32,000 nt of DNA from Faecalibaculum rodentium (GTDB lineage: Bacteria > Bacillota_I > Bacilli_A > Erysipelotrichales > Erysipelotrichaceae), in NCBI RefSeq assembly GCF_001564455.1, contig NZ_CP011391.1, forward strand, positions 2,460,001 to 2,492,000. Reading direction: 5' to 3'. A program made the translations under genes and the position numbers. Every line of letters starts with the position of its first letter. Position 1 is the first letter of the stretch. The notes under the pieces were generated by a model. That model had not been told where the DNA came from. It made no database searches and saw only the letters and a list, made by a program, of their open reading frames with translations. Positions 11,573 to 32,000 of the stretch are shown piece by piece.

Positions 11573-12413
11573 AATTTTCCTCATACAGACGGATGAAAGT
11601 CTCCAGGTCCAGGTTCTGTGCCCGGGCAGCGGGATCGATCCCGGCCTTCTCCAGGATCTTCGCCGCAAGCTCCTTGTCCTGCAGCCACTGCCGCAGGTTG
11701 TTGGAAATGGTTTTCCGGCGCTGCACAAAACAGGCCTTCACCATATCGATGAACAGCTTCTCGTCCCGGACAGGGTGATCCTTGATGAAGTCGAACCGCA
11801 CCACCGCGGAATCCACATTGGGACGCGGACTGAACACCTGCCGGGAGACATCCATGACTTTCCGGACATGGGTCCGGTACCGGGTGATCACCGACAGGGC
11901 ATTGTAGTCCGGACTGCCGGGTCCTGCTGTGAAGCGGTCCGCCACTTCCTTCTGCATCATCGCCGTTACACTGGCGATGTCGGCACCGGATTCAAACAGC
12001 CGGAAGAGGATCGGCGTGGTGATGTAGTACGGCAGGTTGCTCGCAAACCGCACCTTCTGCCCCGGTTCGCAAAACTGGTCAATGATGTCCTCCACTGGCG
12101 CTTCCAGGAAGTCCTGCAGGATCACCGTCAGGTTGTCGGCCCCCAGCTCCGCCTGCAGGATCTCCGGCAGCCGGGGATCCACTTCGAACGCCACCACCTT
12201 CTGCGCTTTTTCGCACAGAAACTGCGTCAGTGCCCCGATGCCGGGGCCGATTTCAAACACCAGATCCGACGGATCGTCAATGGCGCTCCGGGCGATTTTT
12301 TCCACCACACCAGGTTCCGTGATAAAGTTCTGTCCGAATTTCTTTTTTGCCTGCAGCCCGTAGCGGTCCTGGATTTCCCTAGTCCGCCGGACCGTCGCAA
12401 TCGCTTCCTGCAT
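11532..12413 (-). CDS. rsmA: 16S rRNA (adenine1518/1519-N6) dimethyltransferase
   Basis: 293 aa with 'KKFGQNFI' and the SAM motif 'VFEIGPGIGALT'. Confidence 0.93.
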   Translation of the reverse strand: MQEAIATVRRTREIQDRYGLQAKKKFGQNFITEPGVVEKIARSAIDDPSDLVFEIGPGIGALTQFLCEKAQKVVAFEVDPRLPEILQAELGADNLTVILQDFLEAPVEDIIDQFCEPGQKVRFASNLPYYITTPILFRLFESGADIASVTAMMQKEVADRFTAGPGSPDYNALSVITRYRTHVRKVMDVSRQVFSPRPNVDSAVVRFDFIKDHPVRDEKLFIDMVKACFVQRRKTISNNLRQWLQDKELAAKILEKAGIDPAARAQNLDLETFIRLYEENYEDIRKCKGESRP

Positions 12414-13011
12414 CCTGCACCAGCCTTTCCGCTTCCTCTTTCGTGATCCCCAGCAGATTCATCCGCCTGAAACACGTCTTCGCATTGCAGGGACCCATGT
12501 GCAGCAGCCGGCACACGGCTTCCCGTTTCTTCCGGTTTCCATTCAGACCCAGATCCAGGTACTCGGACCAGCTCAGCGTGTCGGTCTGCCGGTGTGTGAA
12601 CGTTACACAGGCAGAAAGCGCCGATTCCAGGTCCTCCCGACTGGCATGCTCGATTCCCACCTTTTTTGTGGTTCTCGCCTTTTCCTTCGGGACAAATGCC
12701 TGTCCGGCCTCCGGCAGTGCCTCCATGATTTTCCGCCGCAGCCGCTCTCCCGGGCCATCGGGATCCGTAAACACGATCACGCCCCGGGTCTTCGCTGCCT
12801 GCCGGATCAGGTCCAGCGTCTCCGGACGCAGGCGCCCGCCATCAGTTTCCACGGTATCGCAGTCAAAGAACCGCTTCAGTCTCGCAGTGTCGTTTTTGCC
12901 CTCCACCACGATGACCTCGGCGATGGACAGCCGCTCCATGGTCTGCTGCCCGGATCCGCTTCTCTTCTGTTCCTCTGTGCGCCGCATGGCGTTCATAGTC
13001 TCCATGGTCAT
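12379..13011 (-). CDS. rnmV: Ribonuclease M5 (Toprim)
   Basis: 'VIVVEGKNDTARLKRFF' and 'VIVFTDPDGPGERLR' Toprim motifs. An alternative start is at 12939 (MERLS...). Confidence 0.85.
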   Translation of the reverse strand: MTMETMNAMRRTEEQKRSGSGQQTMERLSIAEVIVVEGKNDTARLKRFFDCDTVETDGGRLRPETLDLIRQAAKTRGVIVFTDPDGPGERLRRKIMEALPEAGQAFVPKEKARTTKKVGIEHASREDLESALSACVTFTHRQTDTLSWSEYLDLGLNGNRKKREAVCRLLHMGPCNAKTCFRRMNLLGITKEEAERLVQDAGSDCDGPAD

Positions 13012-13014
13012 GGG

Positions 13015-13887
13015 CTACACCGTCCCGTGCGGGGCGACAAATCCTTCCCCGTGCACCGAGTTGACATCGCTGACGATGATGAATGCATTCCGGTCAATGG
13101 CCAGCACTCCCTGCTCAAGCTGCGGATACTGCGTGCGGGCAATGACACACATCACCACCGGCCGGCTGGTTTCCGTATAGCCGCCTTTGGAGTCCAGCAG
13201 CGTCACGCCGCGTTCCAGGTCCTCCAGAACAAACCGCCGCACAGCCTCCCACTGATCCGTGATGATCATCACATTCTGCGAAGGCTGGGATCCCAGCATG
13301 ATGGTGCGGTTGATCATGTATCCCGACACGAAGACCGAAATCAGCCCCACGAGCGCCGCCTGCAGACCGTAACTGGCAATGCCCAGGGCCACCGTCAGCC
13401 CATCCACCAGCATCACCGCTTCCCCCTCCTTGATGGGGGTGTACTTGGCCAGGATCAGTGCCGGAATGTCCATCCCGCCGGTCGAGGCACCGGTCCGGAA
13501 CACGAGACCCAGCGCCAGACCACAGAGAAATCCGGAGTAGATCGAAGCCACCCAGGACTCCATAATAAAATACCCCGGGGGGAAACAGGTCTGGGCCACC
13601 CAGGTGAACAGACTGACAAACAGCGGATAGAGAATCGCCGAGAGCAGGGAATTCATGGCGAATTTCTTCCCCAGCATCACAGCACCCAGGATATACAGTC
13701 CAATGGTCAGGCCGTTGATCATGGCAACGGTGGGAATGTGCAGAAGGGGATACAGTGCCACAGACACACCGGCAACACCGCCGGTCAGGATTTCATTGGG
13801 GACGATGAGAAAGGCCACGGCCGCCGCAAGCATCAGGTTGCCTGTCACGACCAGACCCAGTGAAACGAACTTCTTCATGTTCTTCAT
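13015..13887 (-). CDS. YitT-family membrane protein (C-terminal DUF2179)
   Basis: 290 aa polytopic protein with a soluble C-terminal domain 'VMCVIARTQYPQLEQGVLAIDRNAFIIVSDVNSVHGEGF'. The true start may be the second ATG at 13878. Confidence 0.85.
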   Translation of the reverse strand: MKNMKKFVSLGLVVTGNLMLAAAVAFLIVPNEILTGGVAGVSVALYPLLHIPTVAMINGLTIGLYILGAVMLGKKFAMNSLLSAILYPLFVSLFTWVAQTCFPPGYFIMESWVASIYSGFLCGLALGLVFRTGASTGGMDIPALILAKYTPIKEGEAVMLVDGLTVALGIASYGLQAALVGLISVFVSGYMINRTIMLGSQPSQNVMIITDQWEAVRRFVLEDLERGVTLLDSKGGYTETSRPVVMCVIARTQYPQLEQGVLAIDRNAFIIVSDVNSVHGEGFVAPHGTV

Positions 13888-25202: not shown

Positions 25203-25605
25203 GCAAGGAAGCAGAAAGATCCGCCGCTTCCGACAGGGACCGAAAAGGTGCCAGACGCGTCAGACAAGACGTTAAAATCGACAGAGTGCAAAGAAACTCA
25301 AAGGGAAACAGAGATCCGGAAAAAGGGCCGAAGTTTCCAGCCTTGAAAAAATCCCTCCGATTCAGACATCCGAAAGAAAAAATACAAAATGATTCGAAAA
25401 GGATTGGAAAAAGGAGAGACACAGGACAGGCCAAAGGATGCAATCTAAACGGCTAAGTGGTTGAAAGATACCGGAAAGCATGAAGAAAGCAGAGAAGCTG
25501 TCCGAACCAGTCAAGGATAAACGTCTGAAACAATCAGCCAGCACCTGATCTCCCTGGACATACAAGGATCCGGGGATGATTCAGAAAGAATCATCCTTTG
25601 TTTTT
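25203..25605 (+). ncRNA. Candidate ~400-nt purine-rich non-coding transcript (orphan unit)
   Basis: Bounded by the extended -10 promoter and a strong terminator. Strongly A+G-rich on the + strand. No + strand ORF of 60 aa or more; only 19- and 22-aa ORFs without a usable SD. Many GGA/AAGGA motifs. Confidence 0.3.
25574..25605 (+). terminator. Intrinsic terminator
   Basis: GGATGATTC-AGAAA-GAATCATCC followed by TTTGTTTTT. Confidence 0.82.
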
Positions 25606-25720
25606 GGAACAGCGAAGGACCGCCTGACAGCGAATGCAGGCGGTCCTTCTGGCGTGATGGACTCGGAAGAGAGAACAGGAAATGACAGAGAATCAAAAGA
25701 ACTGTGGGTCAATTAAAGAA

Positions 25721-25746
25721 AATTGACTCAATCGATTGAGTCAATT
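25721..25746. promoter_or_regulatory. Perfect 26-bp palindrome AATTGACTCAATCGATTGAGTCAATT (operator-like), with extra GTCAATT half-sites
   Basis: Perfect dyad verified base by base. An additional GTCAATT lies at 25708-25714 and TCAATT at 25755-25760. Confidence 0.85.
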
Positions 25747-25786
25747 CAGCCGAATCAATTCAAATTGTACTTTGGGGAGATTCTGC

Positions 25787-25849
25787 ATGGAAAGAATCAA
25801 AAACGTTCTGATGTCAGACGGATTCGATGGTACAGAGACTACACCATAG
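25787..25849 (+). CDS. Possible 20-aa micro-ORF (MERIKNVLMSDGFDGTETTP)
   Basis: GGGGAG lies 7 nt upstream of the ATG. The ORF sits between the palindrome and a terminator. No homology evidence. Confidence 0.2.
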   Translation: MERIKNVLMSDGFDGTETTP

Positions 25850-25887
25850 CGACCCATTCTGACAGAGCTGTACAGGAATCAGCATCA

Positions 25888-25913
25888 GGGGGCTGAATCC
25901 AGCCCCCTTTATT
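25888..25913 (+). terminator. Intrinsic terminator
   Basis: GGGGGCT-GAATCC-AGCCCCC followed by TTTATT. Confidence 0.75.
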
Positions 25914-25982
25914 GTGGGCAATCACCATCGCTTATGAGTGAATCATGGGAAAACGATGATGGTGACTGCTTATGTAAATAGA

Positions 25983-26651
25983 TTATCTCCGTGGCATATA
26001 ATAACGGCCGCTTTTGTTGTAGTACGAAAAATGATTTGAAGCATAAGAAACACTCAATGATACAGATGCAGTTCCTTCGACGCCAGCGCCTACAGTTCCT
26101 CCCACTGTAGTGGTTCCATTGTCAAAGAAATCTCCATTAACGATCCAGTCAATTGTCTGAGCATCCACCAGATTCAGATATACGGTTCCTGCAAACTGCT
26201 TTGTTATACCACGACTGGAATCATATCTATTCAAGGAAATATTCATAATTTGAACACAGGTCATCTGGCTGCCTTCATAATCCGCTGATTTATGATAAAA
26301 CTGGATCCCTGCTGGAGCATATCCAGTCATGGCTGGAATCGGAATCGTAAGAGTTCTGTAGGTAGCAGCCCGCAAAGAAGCAAGAATTTCATTTTTCGTA
26401 TCGATCGAACCTGTTGATTGCTTAAATTCCTTCAAGTTATTTCGTTCAAGTTCCACCATTTCGTTAATTACTTCATTTGGTGTTTTGTTCTGTTCCATAC
26501 AGATCCTGTTAACCATTTCATCGAATGTCATAGTCTCATCAATGGATTCTTGAAAATTCACTGGTTTCGATTCTGTACAGCCTAATAAATGATGGCTGCT
26601 AACAGCAGCCAGTCCCATACTCATGATTATTGTCAAAAATTTCCCTTTCAT
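25983..26651 (-). CDS. Putative lipoprotein, unknown family (222 aa)
   Basis: Start at 'MKGKFLTIIMSMGLAAVSSHHLLGC' with lipobox LLGC, preceded by AAGGAAG. Low G+C. The C-terminal half is beta-rich and G/T/S-rich. Confidence 0.75.
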   Translation of the reverse strand: MKGKFLTIIMSMGLAAVSSHHLLGCTESKPVNFQESIDETMTFDEMVNRICMEQNKTPNEVINEMVELERNNLKEFKQSTGSIDTKNEILASLRAATYRTLTIPIPAMTGYAPAGIQFYHKSADYEGSQMTCVQIMNISLNRYDSSRGITKQFAGTVYLNLVDAQTIDWIVNGDFFDNGTTTVGGTVGAGVEGTASVSLSVSYASNHFSYYNKSGRYYMPRR

Positions 26652-26707
26652 AATGATTCTTCCTTTGCTTAATGAAGAAATCAAACTCCATTACTTATTT
26701 TAATACA

Positions 26708-27057
26708 CTATCTGGGATTTACCGTTACCCATATACATTTATTTGTGGAAACTCCATTAATGCTGATATAGACACTGACAATCTTGCTTCCAGGTGTCAT
26801 CAGTGCACCAGTTACTGTCACGGCAGCACTGCTAGATTCCAAAATCCATCCACGACAACTCCAATTACCATTAGCGTAAGTCATGGTAGCTGCAACTTTA
26901 ACATAATATCTATTTACTGATCCTGCATTCTCTCCATACCAGGTTTCGACACTATATGGTTCTATTTCGGTTTCTTCTGCACAGACTGCCATCGGAGATA
27001 ACCCAATACCTGAAGTAGCAATAATTCCTGCCAGTATTATTTTTTGAGAGTATTCAT
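26708..27057 (-). pseudogene. Small secreted protein, unknown family, split by a frameshift at an A6 run
   Basis: A strong RBS (AAAGGAGAGGAAATT) precedes ATG 27057, which reads MNTLKK then TAA (27039-27037). The -1 frame continues IILAGIIATSGIGLSPMAVCA-EETE... to 26708. Joined, it is a 116-aa protein with a textbook signal peptide. Confidence 0.6.
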
Positions 27058-27091
27058 AATTTCCTCTCCTTTCTGGCTCTACAATATTGCA

Positions 27092-29518
27092 TCAATCTTT
27101 CAAAAACTTTTCATTTCTTCTGTTAACCCAGAACCCGGCTATTGCCAAGACTACGGTCATACCCAGAACTGCAGGAAGCAGCCACAAGCTGATCTGGTGA
27201 TCGAGCTGATAGATTCCCACAGCCTCATTGTTGACAAAGAGAAAAGGCATTACACTCCCCAGCAAATCTCCATTGGTTGGAAATCGGCTGTGAATCGCCT
27301 CAACCAGGTTACCTGCCAGTAAAATTCCGGTCGCCAACAAAAACAGCAGCAAACCCCACACAGAGCAAATCGCTTTGTCAGCCTGTGACAATCGGGCACC
27401 CGCCAGGATCAGACATTGTTTCCAGTCTGCCAGCTGATTATGCAATCTTCCAGTTGCAGAAAGGATAAAGAAACTCAGGGACAAGAACAAAGCAGCTGTC
27501 AAAACACCGAAAAGCGTTTCCTGACTGTCAAGAAGGTCCATCACTCTCTGTTTAATAGCCCTCTCATTGGTCATATACACTGCTTCCCTGGCTGCTATGG
27601 CAGAGACCGACACTTGAACTTCGTCTTTCTGCTCATCAGAAAGAGTCAGGTGCAGACGATTCACAGGATATTCAAAAAAATCCGGAGCAGCATATATTGT
27701 ATAAGCCATGGACAGTCCCATCATCTCATCAAATCTCATCCATTCAGGCGGTTTTCGCAAAATGCCAGCAATTCTGGTCTTTACTTCTTTCCCGAAAGGA
27801 TCCTGCAGCAGAATTGTGTCTCCAGAACGATATCCTCCCTCACTCTTTACCTCTATTGAATTGGATAAATCATCAGCCAGCCACAGTTTGCCGTCATAAA
27901 TAGAGACATCCGGTGCATACAGAATAATGCCCTCTCCGCTGTTCCAGAGCTCCTCATCAAATCCTTCCACTTCTGTCAGGTCTATATCTTCCCGACTGAT
28001 AATGGGAACCATTTGCCAGTTCCTCAAGTCTTCTGCCATCAATTCCGATGGATACAGCAGACTGTTCCGGGATTCGTTGGAAATTGTCGGATCATTACGC
28101 AGCTGCTCCAGCAGTGATCCTTCTTCAACAGGTATGGCCCATCCATACATCTGGACAAAACCAGATTCCACATGAGAAAACCGACTGTCATCTTTCAGCT
28201 TTTCTGCTATTCTTTCCAGACTGTCATCTGTTCTGAAAGTCTGAAGTCCTTCAGGCTCCAGAGACAAAATGAAATCCGGCTTCTCCTGCAGCCACTTTTG
28301 TAACTGCCAAGTTTCTGTCAACGCCAGGGTCGTTCCGAAGAATACCGCAGCCAGAAAGACTGCAGCAATCAGATTTCCGGCTATGCTTCGGTTCCGGCTT
28401 TCCAGAAATCGCAGACCAAGACGGAAAGCTGTGACCCGTTTCATCGGCTTCCAGTGTCTTTGAGTTTCCGGAAGGTCTCCTCCACTGGCATTTTCCACTG
28501 CCGGAATCTCTTTGACATCCTTGGCCAGCAGACAGCACAGGATCAGAATCTCCAGAATCAGAGCTCCTGCTGTTCCCAGAATCACCGGCAACGGCCAGTT
28601 CATCAAAGTCGCGATTGTCAGAGAAATCAGAGCAGCTGTTCCGGCAGCCTGAATAATGGTTCTGATCAGGTCTTTTCGGATCTTTCGTTCTGACACACCC
28701 AATCCCTTCAGTACTTGAATATCATGTCTGCGGCTTTTCAGCCACTTACGGAAGACGACCATAATCAGGAAAGCGGACCCTCCCAGAGAAAATACCATCA
28801 ACATGGACCATGCAGCATTTTCCGGTGCAAAAGGTTCCCACAATTCCTTTACATGTACATTTCGAATCAGCAGCGGCATAGCCTGTTTCAAATCATCTAT
28901 TACTTCAGAGTTTTCACCTCTGATAAACACATTATCCCTGACAGATTTCAGTCCCGATCCAGGTCCTGTGAAAATGGCTGGCTGACTGTCACCACTGATC
29001 CAGGAGGTAGTGTAATTATTAATTATACCTGTCACTGTAAATTGTCGCTGACTTCCCTGAATTGTTCCGGTAATAGTTTCCCCCGGCTCATAGGCCATTC
29101 CAAGTCGGTCAAGAACCCAGTTTTCCACTGCGATTTCATCTCCTCTTTCCGGTAATCTACCTTGAAGGAGGCTGAAATTTGCCAATTTGTAAAAGGCACC
29201 ATCAGCACAGCCGGTTACAAATGTCAGGCCATTCGTTTCCAGCAACCCGAATATTTCCTGAGTTCCCACTTCTTCCAGCAATTCATGGGAATTCAGAATC
29301 TGACGGTCTTTTACACTGATATCCATCCTCACCCCCTGCCACAGACCATATTGCATCCTGGCAGTCTCCAGTCTTTTGTTCCACAGACCGGTCTGAACAG
29401 CGACAGCTGTCGTAAGGCACAGGAATCCGCAAAGGAATATAAGAAAAAAGCGCAGCTTCAAAGAGCGATTTTGTGAAAAGTACTGGAATTCAGATTTGCT
29501 CATTCTGAATTCTCCCAT
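27092..29518 (-). CDS. ABC transporter permease, tandem MacB/FtsX-type (two extracytoplasmic domains)
   Basis: 808 aa with a repeated TM-large loop-3TM architecture. Follows and overlaps the ATPase gene. An alternative start is at 29503. Confidence 0.88.
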   Translation of the reverse strand: MGEFRMSKSEFQYFSQNRSLKLRFFLIFLCGFLCLTTAVAVQTGLWNKRLETARMQYGLWQGVRMDISVKDRQILNSHELLEEVGTQEIFGLLETNGLTFVTGCADGAFYKLANFSLLQGRLPERGDEIAVENWVLDRLGMAYEPGETITGTIQGSQRQFTVTGIINNYTTSWISGDSQPAIFTGPGSGLKSVRDNVFIRGENSEVIDDLKQAMPLLIRNVHVKELWEPFAPENAAWSMLMVFSLGGSAFLIMVVFRKWLKSRRHDIQVLKGLGVSERKIRKDLIRTIIQAAGTAALISLTIATLMNWPLPVILGTAGALILEILILCCLLAKDVKEIPAVENASGGDLPETQRHWKPMKRVTAFRLGLRFLESRNRSIAGNLIAAVFLAAVFFGTTLALTETWQLQKWLQEKPDFILSLEPEGLQTFRTDDSLERIAEKLKDDSRFSHVESGFVQMYGWAIPVEEGSLLEQLRNDPTISNESRNSLLYPSELMAEDLRNWQMVPIISREDIDLTEVEGFDEELWNSGEGIILYAPDVSIYDGKLWLADDLSNSIEVKSEGGYRSGDTILLQDPFGKEVKTRIAGILRKPPEWMRFDEMMGLSMAYTIYAAPDFFEYPVNRLHLTLSDEQKDEVQVSVSAIAAREAVYMTNERAIKQRVMDLLDSQETLFGVLTAALFLSLSFFILSATGRLHNQLADWKQCLILAGARLSQADKAICSVWGLLLFLLATGILLAGNLVEAIHSRFPTNGDLLGSVMPFLFVNNEAVGIYQLDHQISLWLLPAVLGMTVVLAIAGFWVNRRNEKFLKD

Positions 29519-30170
29519 CCTCCATCACCAGCATCCGGTCTGCCTGTTTGGCCAGCGCCAGGTCATGAGTGACCATGATTACAGTCTGATTGAACATTCT
29601 CTGACACTCCCGGAACAAAGAGAACACCTTACGAGAGTTTTCGGAGTCCAGGTTCCCCGTAGGTTCGTCCGCCAGGATCAGATCCGGTTTCACAGAGAGT
29701 GCCCGGGCAATCGCAATCCGCTGCTGCTGACCGCCCGAACATTCACGGGGATATTTGTTCTCCAGCTTTTTGATATCCAGTCTGCTCTTCAGCTCCTCAA
29801 GAAACTCTTTATCAGGACTGCTCCCATTGACTTCGAAAGGAAGCCTCAGATTCTCTTCCACTGTCAGTTCCTGTACCAGAGAATAGAACTGGAAGACCAA
29901 ACCTATATGAGACAGGCGAAAATCAGACCGCTGTTCTTCATTCATTTCAGTAAGTATGGTTTTACCTATTTCAACAGTTCCTTCCTCTGGAGCAATCAGT
30001 CCGGCTATACAGTGCAGCAATGTAGATTTCCCGGAGCCGCTTCGCCCGATGATTGTGACAAACTCCCCAGGCTCAACTTTAAAAGAACAACCCTGCAAAG
30101 CATTGACAGGCGTCGTTTTCATGTTCCAGGTCTTGTGGATATCACAGATTTTTACGGCATATTCTTCCAT
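29490..30170 (-). CDS. ABC transporter ATP-binding protein (MacB/BceA-like)
   Basis: 226 aa with Walker A GRSGSGKST, signature CSGGQQQR, Walker B LILADEPT and H-loop VTHD. Confidence 0.93.
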   Translation of the reverse strand: MEEYAVKICDIHKTWNMKTTPVNALQGCSFKVEPGEFVTIIGRSGSGKSTLLHCIAGLIAPEEGTVEIGKTILTEMNEEQRSDFRLSHIGLVFQFYSLVQELTVEENLRLPFEVNGSSPDKEFLEELKSRLDIKKLENKYPRECSGGQQQRIAIARALSVKPDLILADEPTGNLDSENSRKVFSLFRECQRMFNQTVIMVTHDLALAKQADRMLVMEDGRIQNEQI

Positions 30171-31207
30171 GGTTTTACCTCCGAATTCATTGAATCAAAG
30201 GACTCTTTCATAAACATTGCAGTATCGGATTCCCATGGATGCACAGGCAAGAACAATCGCGCATTAAATCGGCCATCTTCCAGCGTAAGTGACAAATCCC
30301 CTCCGTGAAGTCTGGCTGCAGTTCTTGCCAGATCCAGTCCTATACCATAGTGACTGTCATCTGACGTTTCATATCGATTCATGGAGGGAAGAATCCCACT
30401 TTTTGTTTCATTGCTCACTGTTAACTCCAGACCTGTCTCTTGCTCAACAAGAGCTATCTGCACCTGCTGGCAATTCCTGCAGGCGTTGACCAGAAGAGTT
30501 TCCACTCCTTCCCTCAGAATCCGGGAATCCCCATACAGCCATCCAGGATCAAGCTTTGTCACAATCCGGACTTTATACCCATCAAGTGAAGGCAGTATGT
30601 CCTGTTCCAGCACTTCCTTCAGTGAAAAGAGCTTCATATCCAGAAGGCGATTATTGTAATGAATTCGGGAAGACTGTATAAATTTGTCCAGCTGTGAATC
30701 CATCAGTGCAAAAGATTCTTCAGCCGGTTCATACAAACCTTCGAGTTCCAGTCGCAGTGACAGACTGTTCAAAGATGATTTGAGCTGATGAGCAAAATTT
30801 TCCTACTCCTCCCTGCGAACCTTCATATCTCTGTCCTGTGCTCGAAGCAGTCCTTCCAGCTCCGTTACACGTTTCTGAAGAGCAGTATATTCGTGATGCC
30901 AATCCATCTTCTTCTTACGCTGTTGCCTGCAGCTGACTGCTGCAGATATCAGACCTGTCAGCAGAATAACTTCAGTTATCACAAAACGGCCGTCAAACAG
31001 GGAACTCACAGTTCTCCAGAAAGCATAATCCCCATATCCCTGTTGTATTGCAGATATCCGGATGGAAGAATCCAGATGAAAAAGCGCCTGAACCGGATCC
31101 GGTGCCATGGCTGTCAAATACAGCCGGCTGCCAATCCCATAAACCCAAAAGAAAAAGCTCAATATAAGAACCACAACCCAGAGTGTCATAAGGATATGTC
31201 GTTTCAT
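30152..31207 (-). pseudogene. Sensor histidine kinase interrupted by one in-frame TAG (30805-30803)
   Basis: ORFs 30803-31207 (2 TM plus coiled linker) and 30152-30772 (HATPase_c: 'LLVNACRN', 'HYGIGLDLAR') are in the same frame. Reading through gives ...VRREE*ENFAHQLKSSLNSL..., so the H-box lies just after the stop. Confidence 0.8.
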
Positions 31208-31845
31208 CGTTCCTCCAGACGATACCCGGTATTTTTCCTTCCGATGATATTCAGATCAAAAGGTTCCAGTTTCTTTTTCAGTGTGGACAGACGGGAACTG
31301 AAGGTTTCCGGAGAAATGTCGCGTCCTGTGGTCTGCCGGACAGCGCGCATCAAAGTCTCGGCCTGACAGGGATGCAGAATCAGCTGCCGGAGGATGGCGG
31401 TTTCGGTTCCTGAAAGATCAAGCTGCAGACTGTCTTTTTTCAGACAATGCGTATCTGGATACAGGACTGTTTCTCCCAGATGCAGGGCAGATCTGTACCC
31501 GCTTCTGTGAAGCAGGGCCTCTACTTTTTTCCTGAGGACCGCCAGTCTGACGGGCTTGACGATATAGTCATCACAGCCGGATTCAAAAGCCTCCAGCATG
31601 GTGGTCTCCATTCCATCACTGGAAAGAAACAGAATCGGGACATTGCTGACAATCCTGGCGGCTCTGGCAATATCCAGTCCGCTGCCATCTGGAAGTCTCA
31701 CGTCCAGAAGCAGAAGATCCCATCCCTTCTCACACTCTGCCAGTCCCTGTCTGCAGGTACAGCAGATTTGGCACTCCTCCGGATTCAGGGCTTCCCGAAT
31801 CACAGAAGCCAGTTCTCTGTTGTCCTCCACAATGCAAATTCTCAT
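31204..31845 (-). CDS. OmpR-family response regulator
   Basis: 213 aa. Receiver domain (VEDN, LLLLDVRLPDGSG, YIVKP) plus C-terminal winged helix (...LSTLKKKL...GRKNTGYRLE). RBS AAGGAGATAAGAATT. ATGA overlap with the kinase. Confidence 0.92.
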   Translation of the reverse strand: MRICIVEDNRELASVIREALNPEECQICCTCRQGLAECEKGWDLLLLDVRLPDGSGLDIARAARIVSNVPILFLSSDGMETTMLEAFESGCDDYIVKPVRLAVLRKKVEALLHRSGYRSALHLGETVLYPDTHCLKKDSLQLDLSGTETAILRQLILHPCQAETLMRAVRQTTGRDISPETFSSRLSTLKKKLEPFDLNIIGRKNTGYRLEER

Positions 31846-32000
31846 AATTCTTATCTCCTTAACTCATCATAAAATACAGTGGTGATTCTTCCAACTATCC
31901 TTTAAGTTTTCCGGAATATCTCCCGGATTTTTTCATTTTCCCATTCTTCATTTTCGCAAATCTGCCTTTCAGAAAAATTGCAGACCAGGATTTCCGCCTG

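Follow-up and report, generated by a model that had tools for sequence, protein, structure and literature searches.

Background

Modules in which a two-component system (TCS) is coupled to an FtsX-type ATP-binding cassette (ABC) transporter are the main route by which Firmicutes sense and resist envelope-active peptides, and the accessory proteins of such modules (YsaD, GraX, VraH) are poorly understood. A six-gene locus related to these modules is described here from Faecalibaculum rodentium. It lies at the end of a 32,000-nucleotide (nt) stretch of the chromosome (contig NZ_CP011391.1, positions 2,460,001 to 2,492,000), referred to below as the window, and consists of genes for a response regulator (RR), a histidine kinase (HK), an ABC ATPase, a large permease, a small secreted beta protein, and a lipoprotein-like protein. 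The small protein is proposed to be a dedicated extracellular partner of the transporter. No literature specific to a sensor-transporter module in Faecalibaculum was found.

The Bce-type systems, represented by BceRS-BceAB of Bacillus subtilis, are found, like this locus, in Firmicutes and likewise group the genes for an OmpR-type RR, a membrane HK that lacks HAMP, an ATPase of the MacB class, and a permease of the FtsX fold. In these systems the transporter acts on the outer face of the membrane and informs the kinase, and that logic is borrowed in the interpretation given below (PMC9169098, PMC5985334, PMC11009047). BceB has 10 transmembrane (TM) segments with a single domain between TM7 and TM8, whereas eight TM segments and two extracytoplasmic domains (ECDs) are predicted here; the Bce-type extracellular loop is reported to be divergent, whereas the ECDs of the present permease are better conserved than its TM segments (PMC9169098). 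The HK shows no detectable similarity to BceS and has a loop of about 50 aa where BceS-like kinases have a very short one, and all genes of the present locus form one overlapping unit that includes a conserved secreted beta protein. An initial annotation of the window had compared the core with MacB and BceAB; the combination of a TCS with a MacB-class ABC transporter was borne out, and the BceAB architecture (10 TM segments and one domain, against eight and two) was not.

A secreted component was also taken in the initial annotation to be unusual for such modules, a view that the YsaDCB/TCS-G module of Lactococcus lactis contradicts. There the secreted peptide YsaD is encoded in one operon with a Bce-like transporter and is reported to modulate signal relay rather than resistance itself (PMC7438565). 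The likeness, drawn by description, lies in a small secreted protein whose gene is co-operonic with the ABC genes of a TCS-linked module; the differences are that YsaB is described as BceB-like, that ysaD leads its operon, and that the TCS is on a separate transcript (PMC7438565). In a laboratory L. lactis strain the permease gene of this module is naturally disrupted by a nonsense mutation (PMC7438565), which parallels the decay found at the F. rodentium locus.

The broader class is that of the type VII ABC systems (MacB, LolCDE, FtsEX, YbbAP), whose nucleotide-binding domains (NBDs) are of the same class as the present ATPase, with YbbA, LolD, MacB, and FtsE as strong matches. MacB-family machines work in the extracytoplasmic space rather than transporting across the membrane (PMC5985334), and FtsEX acts through a secreted protein partner (PMC6705773, PMC5985334). 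Escherichia coli YbbP resembles the present permease in having two units of one TM segment, an extracytoplasmic domain, and three TM segments in one polypeptide with a separate NBD, but its units are joined by two extra TM helices, giving 10 TM segments (PMC5985334), in place of a cytoplasmic linker of about 50 aa and eight TM segments here. The permease gave no match to the solved YbbP chains. Relative to MacB systems, the locus has no MacA-like adaptor gene and is TCS-coupled. The system is a variant of the TCS-coupled type VII ABC modules that includes a conserved secreted component of a novel kind.

Results and discussion

Gene order and core proteins

The six successive reading frames are all on the minus strand and span positions 25983 to 31845 (Table 1). 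RR and HK overlap by 4 nt (ATGA), HK and ATPase by 19 nt, and ATPase and permease by 14 nt with the 803-aa permease start or 29 nt with the 808-aa start; a gap of 34 nt precedes the reconstructed small open reading frame (ORF), and one of 56 nt separates it from the lipoprotein gene. The positions, overlaps, and gaps given in the initial annotation agree exactly with these figures. Its domain assignments and the double-FtsX structure it gave to the permease were recovered, the domain matches being Response_reg followed by a weak winged helix, HATPase_c, ABC_tran, and FtsX close to its threshold.

Table 1. Features of the locus in window coordinates, and related gene sets on other contigs (protein lengths in aa follow the gene names)
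Feature	Location	Strand	Basis or description
Response regulator, OmpR/PhoB-type	31204..31845	-	213 aa, intact; Response_reg E 5e-17, weak Trans_reg_C
Histidine kinase pseudogene	30152..31207	-	HATPase_c, TM scan, translation
In-frame TAG in HK	30803..30805	-	CAG to TAG, Gln135 to stop
ABC ATPase, MacB/LolD/BceA/YtrE class	29490..30170	-	226 aa, intact; ABC_tran E 9e-35
Permease	27092..29518	-	803/808 aa, intact; Pfam FtsX near threshold, TM scan, internal duplication
Small secreted beta-protein gene, frameshifted	26708..27057	-	Intact homologues (P0020 and others), lineage 3 allele
A6 run	27040..27045	-	One A lost from ancestral A7 (CTC AAA AAA ATA ATA), causing the small-gene frameshift
Putative lipoprotein	25983..26651	-	222 aa, intact
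Candidate promoter and ribosome-binding site	31866..31894	-	TTGGAA-17 nt-TATGAT and AAGGAG before the RR gene; consensus scan
G+C-rich hairpin	25887..25908		AGGGGGCTG-aatc-CAGCCCCCT; 75 nt downstream of the lipoprotein stop
Perfect 26-nt palindrome	25721..25746		AATTGACTCAATCGATTGAGTCAATT; more AATTGA repeats beside it
Low-G+C stretch, 864 bp, without convincing ORF	25119..25982		Between the lipoprotein gene and a convergent gene of the uracil-DNA glycosylase (UDG) family
Module variant	L018, L028-L031		RR213-HK341-ATPase226-permease806-small116; proteins 39-75% identical to the window
Module variant	L027		RR213-HK341-ATPase210-permease797-small90; permease 51%; same pur/alpha-amylase setting as L018
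Module variant	L021		Six genes including lipoprotein (78%); RR and permease broken
Module variant	L032, L041		Faecalibaculum sp. metagenome-assembled genome (MAG), six genes; lipoprotein-family member 34%
Module variant	L039		RR222-HK342-ATPase241-small125-permease797; small 32%
Module variant	L042		RR-HK323-ATPase228-permease846-small139; permease/small overlap 7 nt; small 38%, permease 21%
Module variant	L044		HK-ATPase-permease-small, partial contig; permease 24%
Lipoprotein and ~65-aa 2-TM protein cassette	L016 810-1678		
Lipoprotein and ~65-aa 2-TM protein cassette	L017 10001-10996		
Lipoprotein and ~65-aa 2-TM protein cassette	L049 3329-4302		

The RR gave full-length matches to the PhoB, CpxR, and VanR models, all under their cut-offs. 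In the HK a loop of about 50 aa connects two TM segments, and HAMP and other input domains are lacking; the H-box (FAHQLKSSL) is followed by HATPase_c, and intact homologues of 341-351 aa exist. Against solved structures it produced a weak match to DivL only, and BceS, presumed to be present in the BceAB-S entries (8g3a and related), was unmatched. The best NCBIfam matches of the ATPase were LolD, the Lcn972-type ABC, FtsE, DevA, and YbbA, again all below their cut-offs. Its nearest solved NBDs of the type VII class were YtrE, BceA, LolD, YbbA, and MacB, with BceA (7tcg_B) ranking near the top at 160 bits and E 6e-46, and its single best match in the Protein Data Bank (PDB) was the unrelated fused Rv1281c. 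The protein belongs to the MacB/LolD/BceA/YtrE/YbbA class.

Eight TM segments were predicted for the permease by a hydropathy scan, in the order TM1, ECD1 (residues ~43-237), TM2-4, linker, TM5, ECD2 (~402-667), and TM6-8. The linker (residues 331-382) is hydrophilic, about 50 aa long, and without a TM segment. The N-terminal and C-terminal halves, each consisting of one TM segment, an extracytoplasmic domain, and three TM segments, are homologous (hhalign probability 88%, E 3.3e-6), with an internal match that covers the late ECD, the next TM segment, and an LKxxG motif, and the protein is therefore read as a direct tandem fusion of two MacB/FtsX units. The Pfam FtsX match at residues 239-314 is weak (24.8 bits against a cut-off of 25.5), so that support for the FtsX fold is near threshold but consistent. 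There was no Pfam MacB_PCD match at E <= 0.1, no NCBIfam family matched the permease at its cut-off, and a sequence search against PDB sequences returned no solved structure.

Comparison between variants of the module found on other contigs showed that the ECDs of the permease are 56-61% conserved, against 32-46% for the TM blocks. The sensor half of the HK is the least conserved part (32-39%), and the RR, the ATPase, and the small protein are each ~70-75% identical. An anti-phage scan with PADLOC produced generic P-loop matches for the ATPase only and none for the RR, the permease, the small protein, or the lipoprotein.

The small secreted protein and its distribution

In its intact form the small protein has 116 aa, comprising a Sec signal peptide and a mature domain of ~89 aa whose charge, read from the sequences, is near-neutral and not cationic. 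An AlphaFold2 (AF2) model consists of six long antiparallel strands with a predicted local distance difference test score (pLDDT) above 90. As had been stated in the initial annotation for both exported proteins of the locus, it belongs to no recognised family: no Pfam, NCBIfam, or PADLOC match was obtained, the family profile matched no PDB sequence, and hhalign detected no relationship between the small-protein and lipoprotein families. Neither exported protein reached the Foldseek significance threshold (E <= 0.001). The best PDB match of the small-protein model had an E of 0.039, no bacteriocin was present among its top 50, and the top matches of both models were generic up-and-down beta barrels (GFP, lipocalins).

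An exhaustive profile search of 1.84 billion representative proteins returned only ten small-protein clusters at E <= 0.001. Eight besides the query's own are genuine, with lengths of 100-133 aa, a signal peptide, and the motifs P-x-N-[VI]-E-T-W-x-G and MTYANGxWGxR. The tenth, a giant repeat protein (P0105), was rejected as a relative, its match being to a low-complexity motif in TxTDANGN Ig-like repeats. In every examinable relative the small gene comes immediately after the permease gene or, in the L039 variant, sits between the ATPase and permease genes. The initial annotation had suggested that both extra genes might co-occur with the transporter; this holds for the small gene wherever it could be checked, including variants with 21-25% permease identity, and not for the lipoprotein gene, which is optional.

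The core module, which is rare and restricted to certain lineages, consists of the RR, the HK, the MacB-class ATPase, the eight-TM tandem-FtsX permease, and the ~90-aa secreted beta protein. This five-gene set was found in at least six divergent variants, some of them on partial or broken contigs (Table 1), and the named genomes with the module are all Erysipelotrichaceae. When 185,579 species representatives were scanned with the permease profile, four loci were recovered, all from the same family (Faecalibaculum, Allobaculum, and two from 'bacterium 51-3'). Erysipelotrichaceae bacterium 51-3 has two permease paralogues on one contig (L035) and a rearranged gene order: behind a secreted lipoprotein homologue come a 67-aa ORF and a fragment of a permease, then an oppositely oriented set of a 122-aa signal-peptide protein, a 151-aa protein, an RR, and an HK, and finally an ATPase and a permease. 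The L018 and L028-L031 variant is flanked by the pur operon with rubredoxin on one side and by alpha-amylase with MsrB on the other.

Several further observations were made on individual contigs. In the sister-species contig L032, a second, paralogous RR-HK-ATPase module (11715-13579) directly follows the lipoprotein-family gene, so that modules stand in tandem. A 176-aa ORF on L014 is a C-terminal permease fragment. On L021 the RR (positions 2-620) is 92-99% identical to that of the window, against 33-55% for the HK, 46-57% for the permease, and 78% for the lipoprotein, a contrast that points to a recombination breakpoint within the module; on this contig both the RR and the permease look frameshifted.

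What is new here is the eight-TM tandem-FtsX architecture with two conserved ECDs, together with a strictly co-inherited secreted protein unmatched by solved folds.

Pseudogenes and F. rodentium lineages

The window copy is degenerate, a module in mid-decay whose HK and small genes are pseudogenes and, for practical purposes, should be annotated as such. The initial annotation had treated it as a functional six-gene operon and did not report the TAG, which lies in frame in the HK gene five codons upstream of the phospho-acceptor histidine (VRREE-stop-ENFAHQLKSSL). Insertion of one A into the A6 run (ATGAATACTCTCAAAAAA followed by TAA) is needed to give the small ORF its signal peptide. Given the nonsense codon and the frameshift, both signalling and the partner protein are lost in the window copy; the reading frames of the other four genes (RR, ATPase, permease, and lipoprotein) remain open. 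The two lesions recur in 12/12 near-identical copies (99.87-99.99% identity to the window) from other metagenome or MAG assemblies, which were picked for encoding an identical RR or an identical lipoprotein, and they are therefore not sequencing errors. In intact relatives the run is A7 (CTC AAA AAA ATC ATA CTG, LKKIIL in translation), and a sense codon takes the place of the TAG.

Three F. rodentium lineages share the island at the same site, and the locus decays by different routes in different lineages. Lineage 1, that of the window (L001-L012), has the A6 frameshift in the small gene and TAG at HK codon 135, with the ATPase, permease, and lipoprotein genes intact. Lineage 2 (L036-L038 and L040), which shares 98.4% identity with the window across the 7.5 kb compared, has the same A6 frameshift and CAG at HK codon 135, together with its own CGA to TGA stop at codon 122, 13 codons upstream of the window TAG position, and 1-nt deletions in the ATPase gene (window position 29986) and the permease gene (27875); its lipoprotein gene is intact, and one member has an extra HK frameshift. 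In lineage 3 (L045-L048), which is rare, all five core genes are intact, with an A7 small gene (116 aa), an HK of 351 aa, the ATPase, and a permease of 803 aa, and the codon at the window TAG position is again CAG. Its small protein is 98% identical to the 116-aa protein reconstructed in the initial annotation, which thus has an intact counterpart. The lipoprotein gene of lineage 3 is dead, with a TTA to TAA change in the signal peptide and a 628-bp deletion equivalent to window positions 25913-26540. Truncated N-terminal HK fragments were found on 433 contigs of lineage 1 and 360 contigs of lineage 2; two intact 351-aa HK alleles were listed on 7 contigs, and a later look-up covered 23 contigs for one allele.

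Between lineages 1 and 2 the HK, ATPase, and permease genes differ by 4 synonymous and 16 non-synonymous changes in sum, which gives a ratio of non-synonymous to synonymous rates (dN/dS) of ~1; the ratio is 0.02-0.12 for six backbone genes and 0.35 for a substrate-binding protein gene, and that of the lipoprotein gene is based on 2 synonymous and 4 non-synonymous changes. Of the nine differences in the HK gene, two are independent nonsense mutations.

A reading in which the two products are still made by recoding, with read-through or suppression of the TAG restoring the kinase, -1 ribosomal or transcriptional slippage on the A6 run restoring the small protein, and low-level or phase-variable expression as the outcome, is highly improbable. 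The frameshift does lie in a homopolymer (CTC AAA AAA TAA) on which a -1 shift would restore the frame, but six A residues are short for efficient slippage, and A6 was present in every lineage 1 and lineage 2 copy fetched, with no length variation. An RF1 (prfA-type) gene is located 8 kb upstream, so the TAG is an ordinary stop. A strong AAAGGAGAG ribosome-binding site is kept and the four other genes are open, as recoding would have it; the extra nonsense and frameshift lesions of lineage 2, with a dN/dS of ~1 over HK, ATPase, and permease, are instead a signature of decay.

The lipoprotein-like protein

The 222-aa protein has an intact ORF and a lipobox-like site, as had been annotated, but its status as a lipoprotein is only probable, because the site (LLGC) is imperfect and because homologues in other genera have ordinary signal peptides; most other family members likewise have an ordinary signal peptide and no lipobox. 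In the AF2 model (mean pLDDT 77) an eight-strand beta domain comes after three helices, and the invariant polar residues of the family cluster in KQFxG…NGDF[FY]xNGTT. There was no Pfam, NCBIfam, or PADLOC match, the family profile was unmatched in PDB sequences, and Foldseek searches of the model against PDB and BFVD (predicted viral structures) gave no significant match.

The family co-occurs with the module in four variants (the window lineage, L021, L032/L041, and Erysipelotrichaceae 51-3), whereas several intact modules (the L018 type, L039, and L042) lack it. It is an optional add-on with its own history and not an obligate partner. In Alkalithermobacter paradoxus and Paenibacillus terreus, lipoprotein homologues are followed by ~64-aa proteins with two TM segments (46% mutual identity, E 5e-13), with no sensor-transporter module nearby. 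On a plasmid/phage-like IMG/VR contig, a homologue that apparently lacks a signal peptide adjoins a 66-aa membrane-protein ORF, and the neighbouring genes read like plasmid replication, partition, and LexA-like repressor genes. Outside Faecalibaculum, the cassette of lipoprotein and 2-TM protein (Table 1) resembles, in its layout, a secreted toxin with its immunity protein.

Proposed role of the small protein

The most economical reading is that the small protein would be a dedicated extracellular partner or modulator of the type VII transporter, and a probability of about 0.5 is assigned to it. This reading is preferred because the small gene is strictly co-inherited, is translationally coupled in the L042 variant, and is embedded among the transporter genes in L039, because the ECDs are unusually conserved and the mature charge is near-neutral, and because MacB-type systems work outside the membrane. 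Conservation of the small protein at ~70%, between the same variants as were used for the ECD comparison, was counted as further support. The ABC complex would then be a type VII mechanotransmission machine that does work on the outer face of the membrane rather than pumping across it, with the small secreted protein as its dedicated extracytoplasmic accessory subunit or modulator, as YsaD is for YsaCB. The kinase would read the state of the transporter and, via the regulator, the operon would be autoregulated; the most plausible role would be the sensing of, and protection against, an envelope-active antimicrobial. That this ~90-aa protein stands for a novel class of extracellular partners of type VII ABC machines in Gram-positive bacteria is doubtful and, on balance, unlikely.

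Several points weigh against the partner role. The flux-sensing logic is an analogy only, since the HK has no BceS similarity and the permease is not of the Bce architecture. Co-transcription of the six genes is a reading of their overlaps and short gaps only, and the open RR, ATPase, permease, and lipoprotein genes of the window could be expressed with residual function. The two nonsense mutations in the HK are suggestive of selection for inactivation, although marginally so (P ~0.05-0.06). Loss of the small gene first and of the kinase afterwards would also fit a transition from bacteriocin producer to non-producer.

That transition belongs to a somewhat unlikely alternative, in which the locus is a bacteriocin locus: the small protein would be a bacteriocin or pheromone with leader-less processing in the style of Lcn972, the ABC transporter would confer self-immunity through its expulsion from the membrane surface, the TCS would provide autoinduction, and the lipoprotein would be a LanI-like immunity protein. 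The parts list is like that of Lcn972-type clusters, with a Sec-exported small protein beside a large membrane protein and a MacB-class ATPase, and TIGR03608 (L_ocin_972_ABC) is the second-best NCBIfam match of the ATPase, but the score of 179.6 bits is under the cut-off of 254.85 and the permease has no NCBIfam match at cut-off. The small protein gave no Pfam match to Lactococcin_972 (PF09683) at E <= 0.1, and by neither sequence profile nor fold did it match that family or a solved bacteriocin. The combination of a lipoprotein, an ABC transporter, and a TCS recalls NisI/NisFEG/NisRK; LanFEG permeases, however, are of the ABC-2 type and not FtsX. A further difference from the lantibiotic immunity sets is that the present lipoprotein has no detectable similarity to any solved protein.

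Hypervariability between close species, tandem paralogous modules, and frequent pseudogenisation are typical of antagonism loci, and the lipoprotein family is elsewhere paired with a small 2-TM protein in a toxin/immunity-like layout, including on the plasmid/phage-like contig. A bacteriocin is nevertheless a poor match for a mature protein that is near-neutral and ~70% conserved next to a faster-diverging permease and HK sensor region, and in L039 the small gene is inside the transporter genes and does not lead the operon. The reciprocal losses, in which lineages without the small gene and the HK (and, in lineage 2, the ABC genes) keep the lipoprotein and lineage 3 does the opposite, would make lineages 1 and 2 immune non-producers and lineage 3 the producer; a producer without its supposed immunity lipoprotein fits poorly, and the pattern rests on three lineages only.

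If the small protein is a transporter partner, the locus is a tractable example of mechanotransmission outside the cell in a Gram-positive gut commensal; if it is a bacteriocin, the three lineages would represent a natural polymorphism of producers and immune non-producers in the mouse gut. F. rodentium is a widely studied mouse-gut species, and its intact, partly broken, and heavily broken lineages are natural 'mutants' for functional tests.

Chromosomal site and composition

The G+C content of 25983-31845 is 0.458, against a backbone mean of 0.586, and no backbone window of equal size falls below 0.517. The hand counts of 22/60 and 43/60 G+C on which the initial annotation had based its composition drop are exact, and the drop persists when G+C and third-position G+C (GC3) are computed properly. 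GC3 is 0.55 for the RR gene, 0.43-0.47 for HK, 0.54 for ATPase, 0.47 for permease, and 0.36, the lowest value in the island, for the lipoprotein gene; the range of 0.36-0.55 compares with 0.64-0.76 for flanking genes. The upstream edge had been placed at or beyond the end of the window and is in fact just outside it, where the gene for an iron-containing alcohol dehydrogenase (Fe-ADH) ends 254 bp upstream of the RR start (~32099 in window coordinates).

Horizontal acquisition had been concluded from this composition. A recently acquired mobile island between the Fe-ADH and UDG genes, carrying a functional six-gene operon, is quite unlikely: its foreign composition is real and a homologous module does occur at a different chromosomal site in another lineage (between pur operon with rubredoxin and alpha-amylase), but in the same position behind Fe-ADH the sister Faecalibaculum species carries a module allele of divergent sequence, and with two pseudogenes the operon is not fully functional in the window. 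No integrase, transposase, tRNA, Rfam match, or flanking direct or att-like repeat, as had been proposed for a boundary check, was found at the flanks (Fe-ADH, UDG). The permease and the small protein were not found on viral contigs, and no empty site was seen among the 23 contigs read that carry an identical UDG.

Because of the divergent allele at the same site in the sister species, the locus is considered old, with turnover by homologous recombination and not by insertion, and the best description is a hypervariable chromosomal site and not a self-mobile island. Backbone proteins of the sister species are 92-95% identical to those of F. rodentium, and identity falls abruptly at the site (Fe-ADH 74%, RR 74%, HK 32-55%, ATPase 74%, permease 50%, lipoprotein 34%). 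The flank itself is a recombination mosaic. When the region just past the right edge of the window (L001 7227-9747) was compared with L036 and L045, an amino-acid ABC ATPase gene and a cytidylate-kinase-like gene were 86% identical at the nt level between lineages 1 and 2, against 98-99.5% for their neighbours; Fe-ADH is intermediate (94.8% nt, GC3 0.57), and the island genes share 99.1-99.6% identity. For lineages 1 and 3 the nt identity is 97.5% over the island and 94.9% over the 7.7-kb upstream flank; this higher identity of the island, like the mosaic flank, counts in favour of a mobile island.

Edges of the transcription unit and other features

A terminator-like hairpin after Fe-ADH is followed by the promoter-like site at 31866-31894, which is regarded as a candidate because the number of such sites in the region is not above chance. 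At the other end, the hairpin at 25887-25908 has its T-tail on the plus strand and is likely the 3' end of the transcription unit; the lineage 3 deletion stops just before it. The stretch from 25119 to 25982 is the downstream edge of the island and has a strong purine/AT skew and several terminator-like hairpins. Terminator-like sites in 25000-32000 number 16 against 5.3 expected, with many at 25130-25600. A search of this stretch for the remnant of a second module or of a 2-TM partner gene gave no protein-level remnant and only a 60-nt match around the palindrome.

Those 60 nt match the sister-species intergenic region (L032 11668-11727) that precedes the second RR-HK-ATPase module, and the palindrome may be an orphaned operator or promoter remaining after loss of a second module. 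Lineage 2 has a 23-nt insertion adjoining the palindrome, at window position 25764. The four independent lineage 3 assemblies (L045-L048) all end ~480 bp after the small gene, just past the palindrome, and the common break point suggests a repeat or a strain-variable junction.

Rfam and tRNA scans of the window gave no match. A second low-G+C patch (0.47-0.48) is present at 1093-3583. It includes a truncated HipA_C kinase-toxin ORF of 198 aa at 1093-1689 on the minus strand and a Fic/DOC-family protein of 350 aa at 2531-3583 on the plus strand, and it looks like the remnant of a toxin-antitoxin or addiction module beside FtsH (3771-5714).

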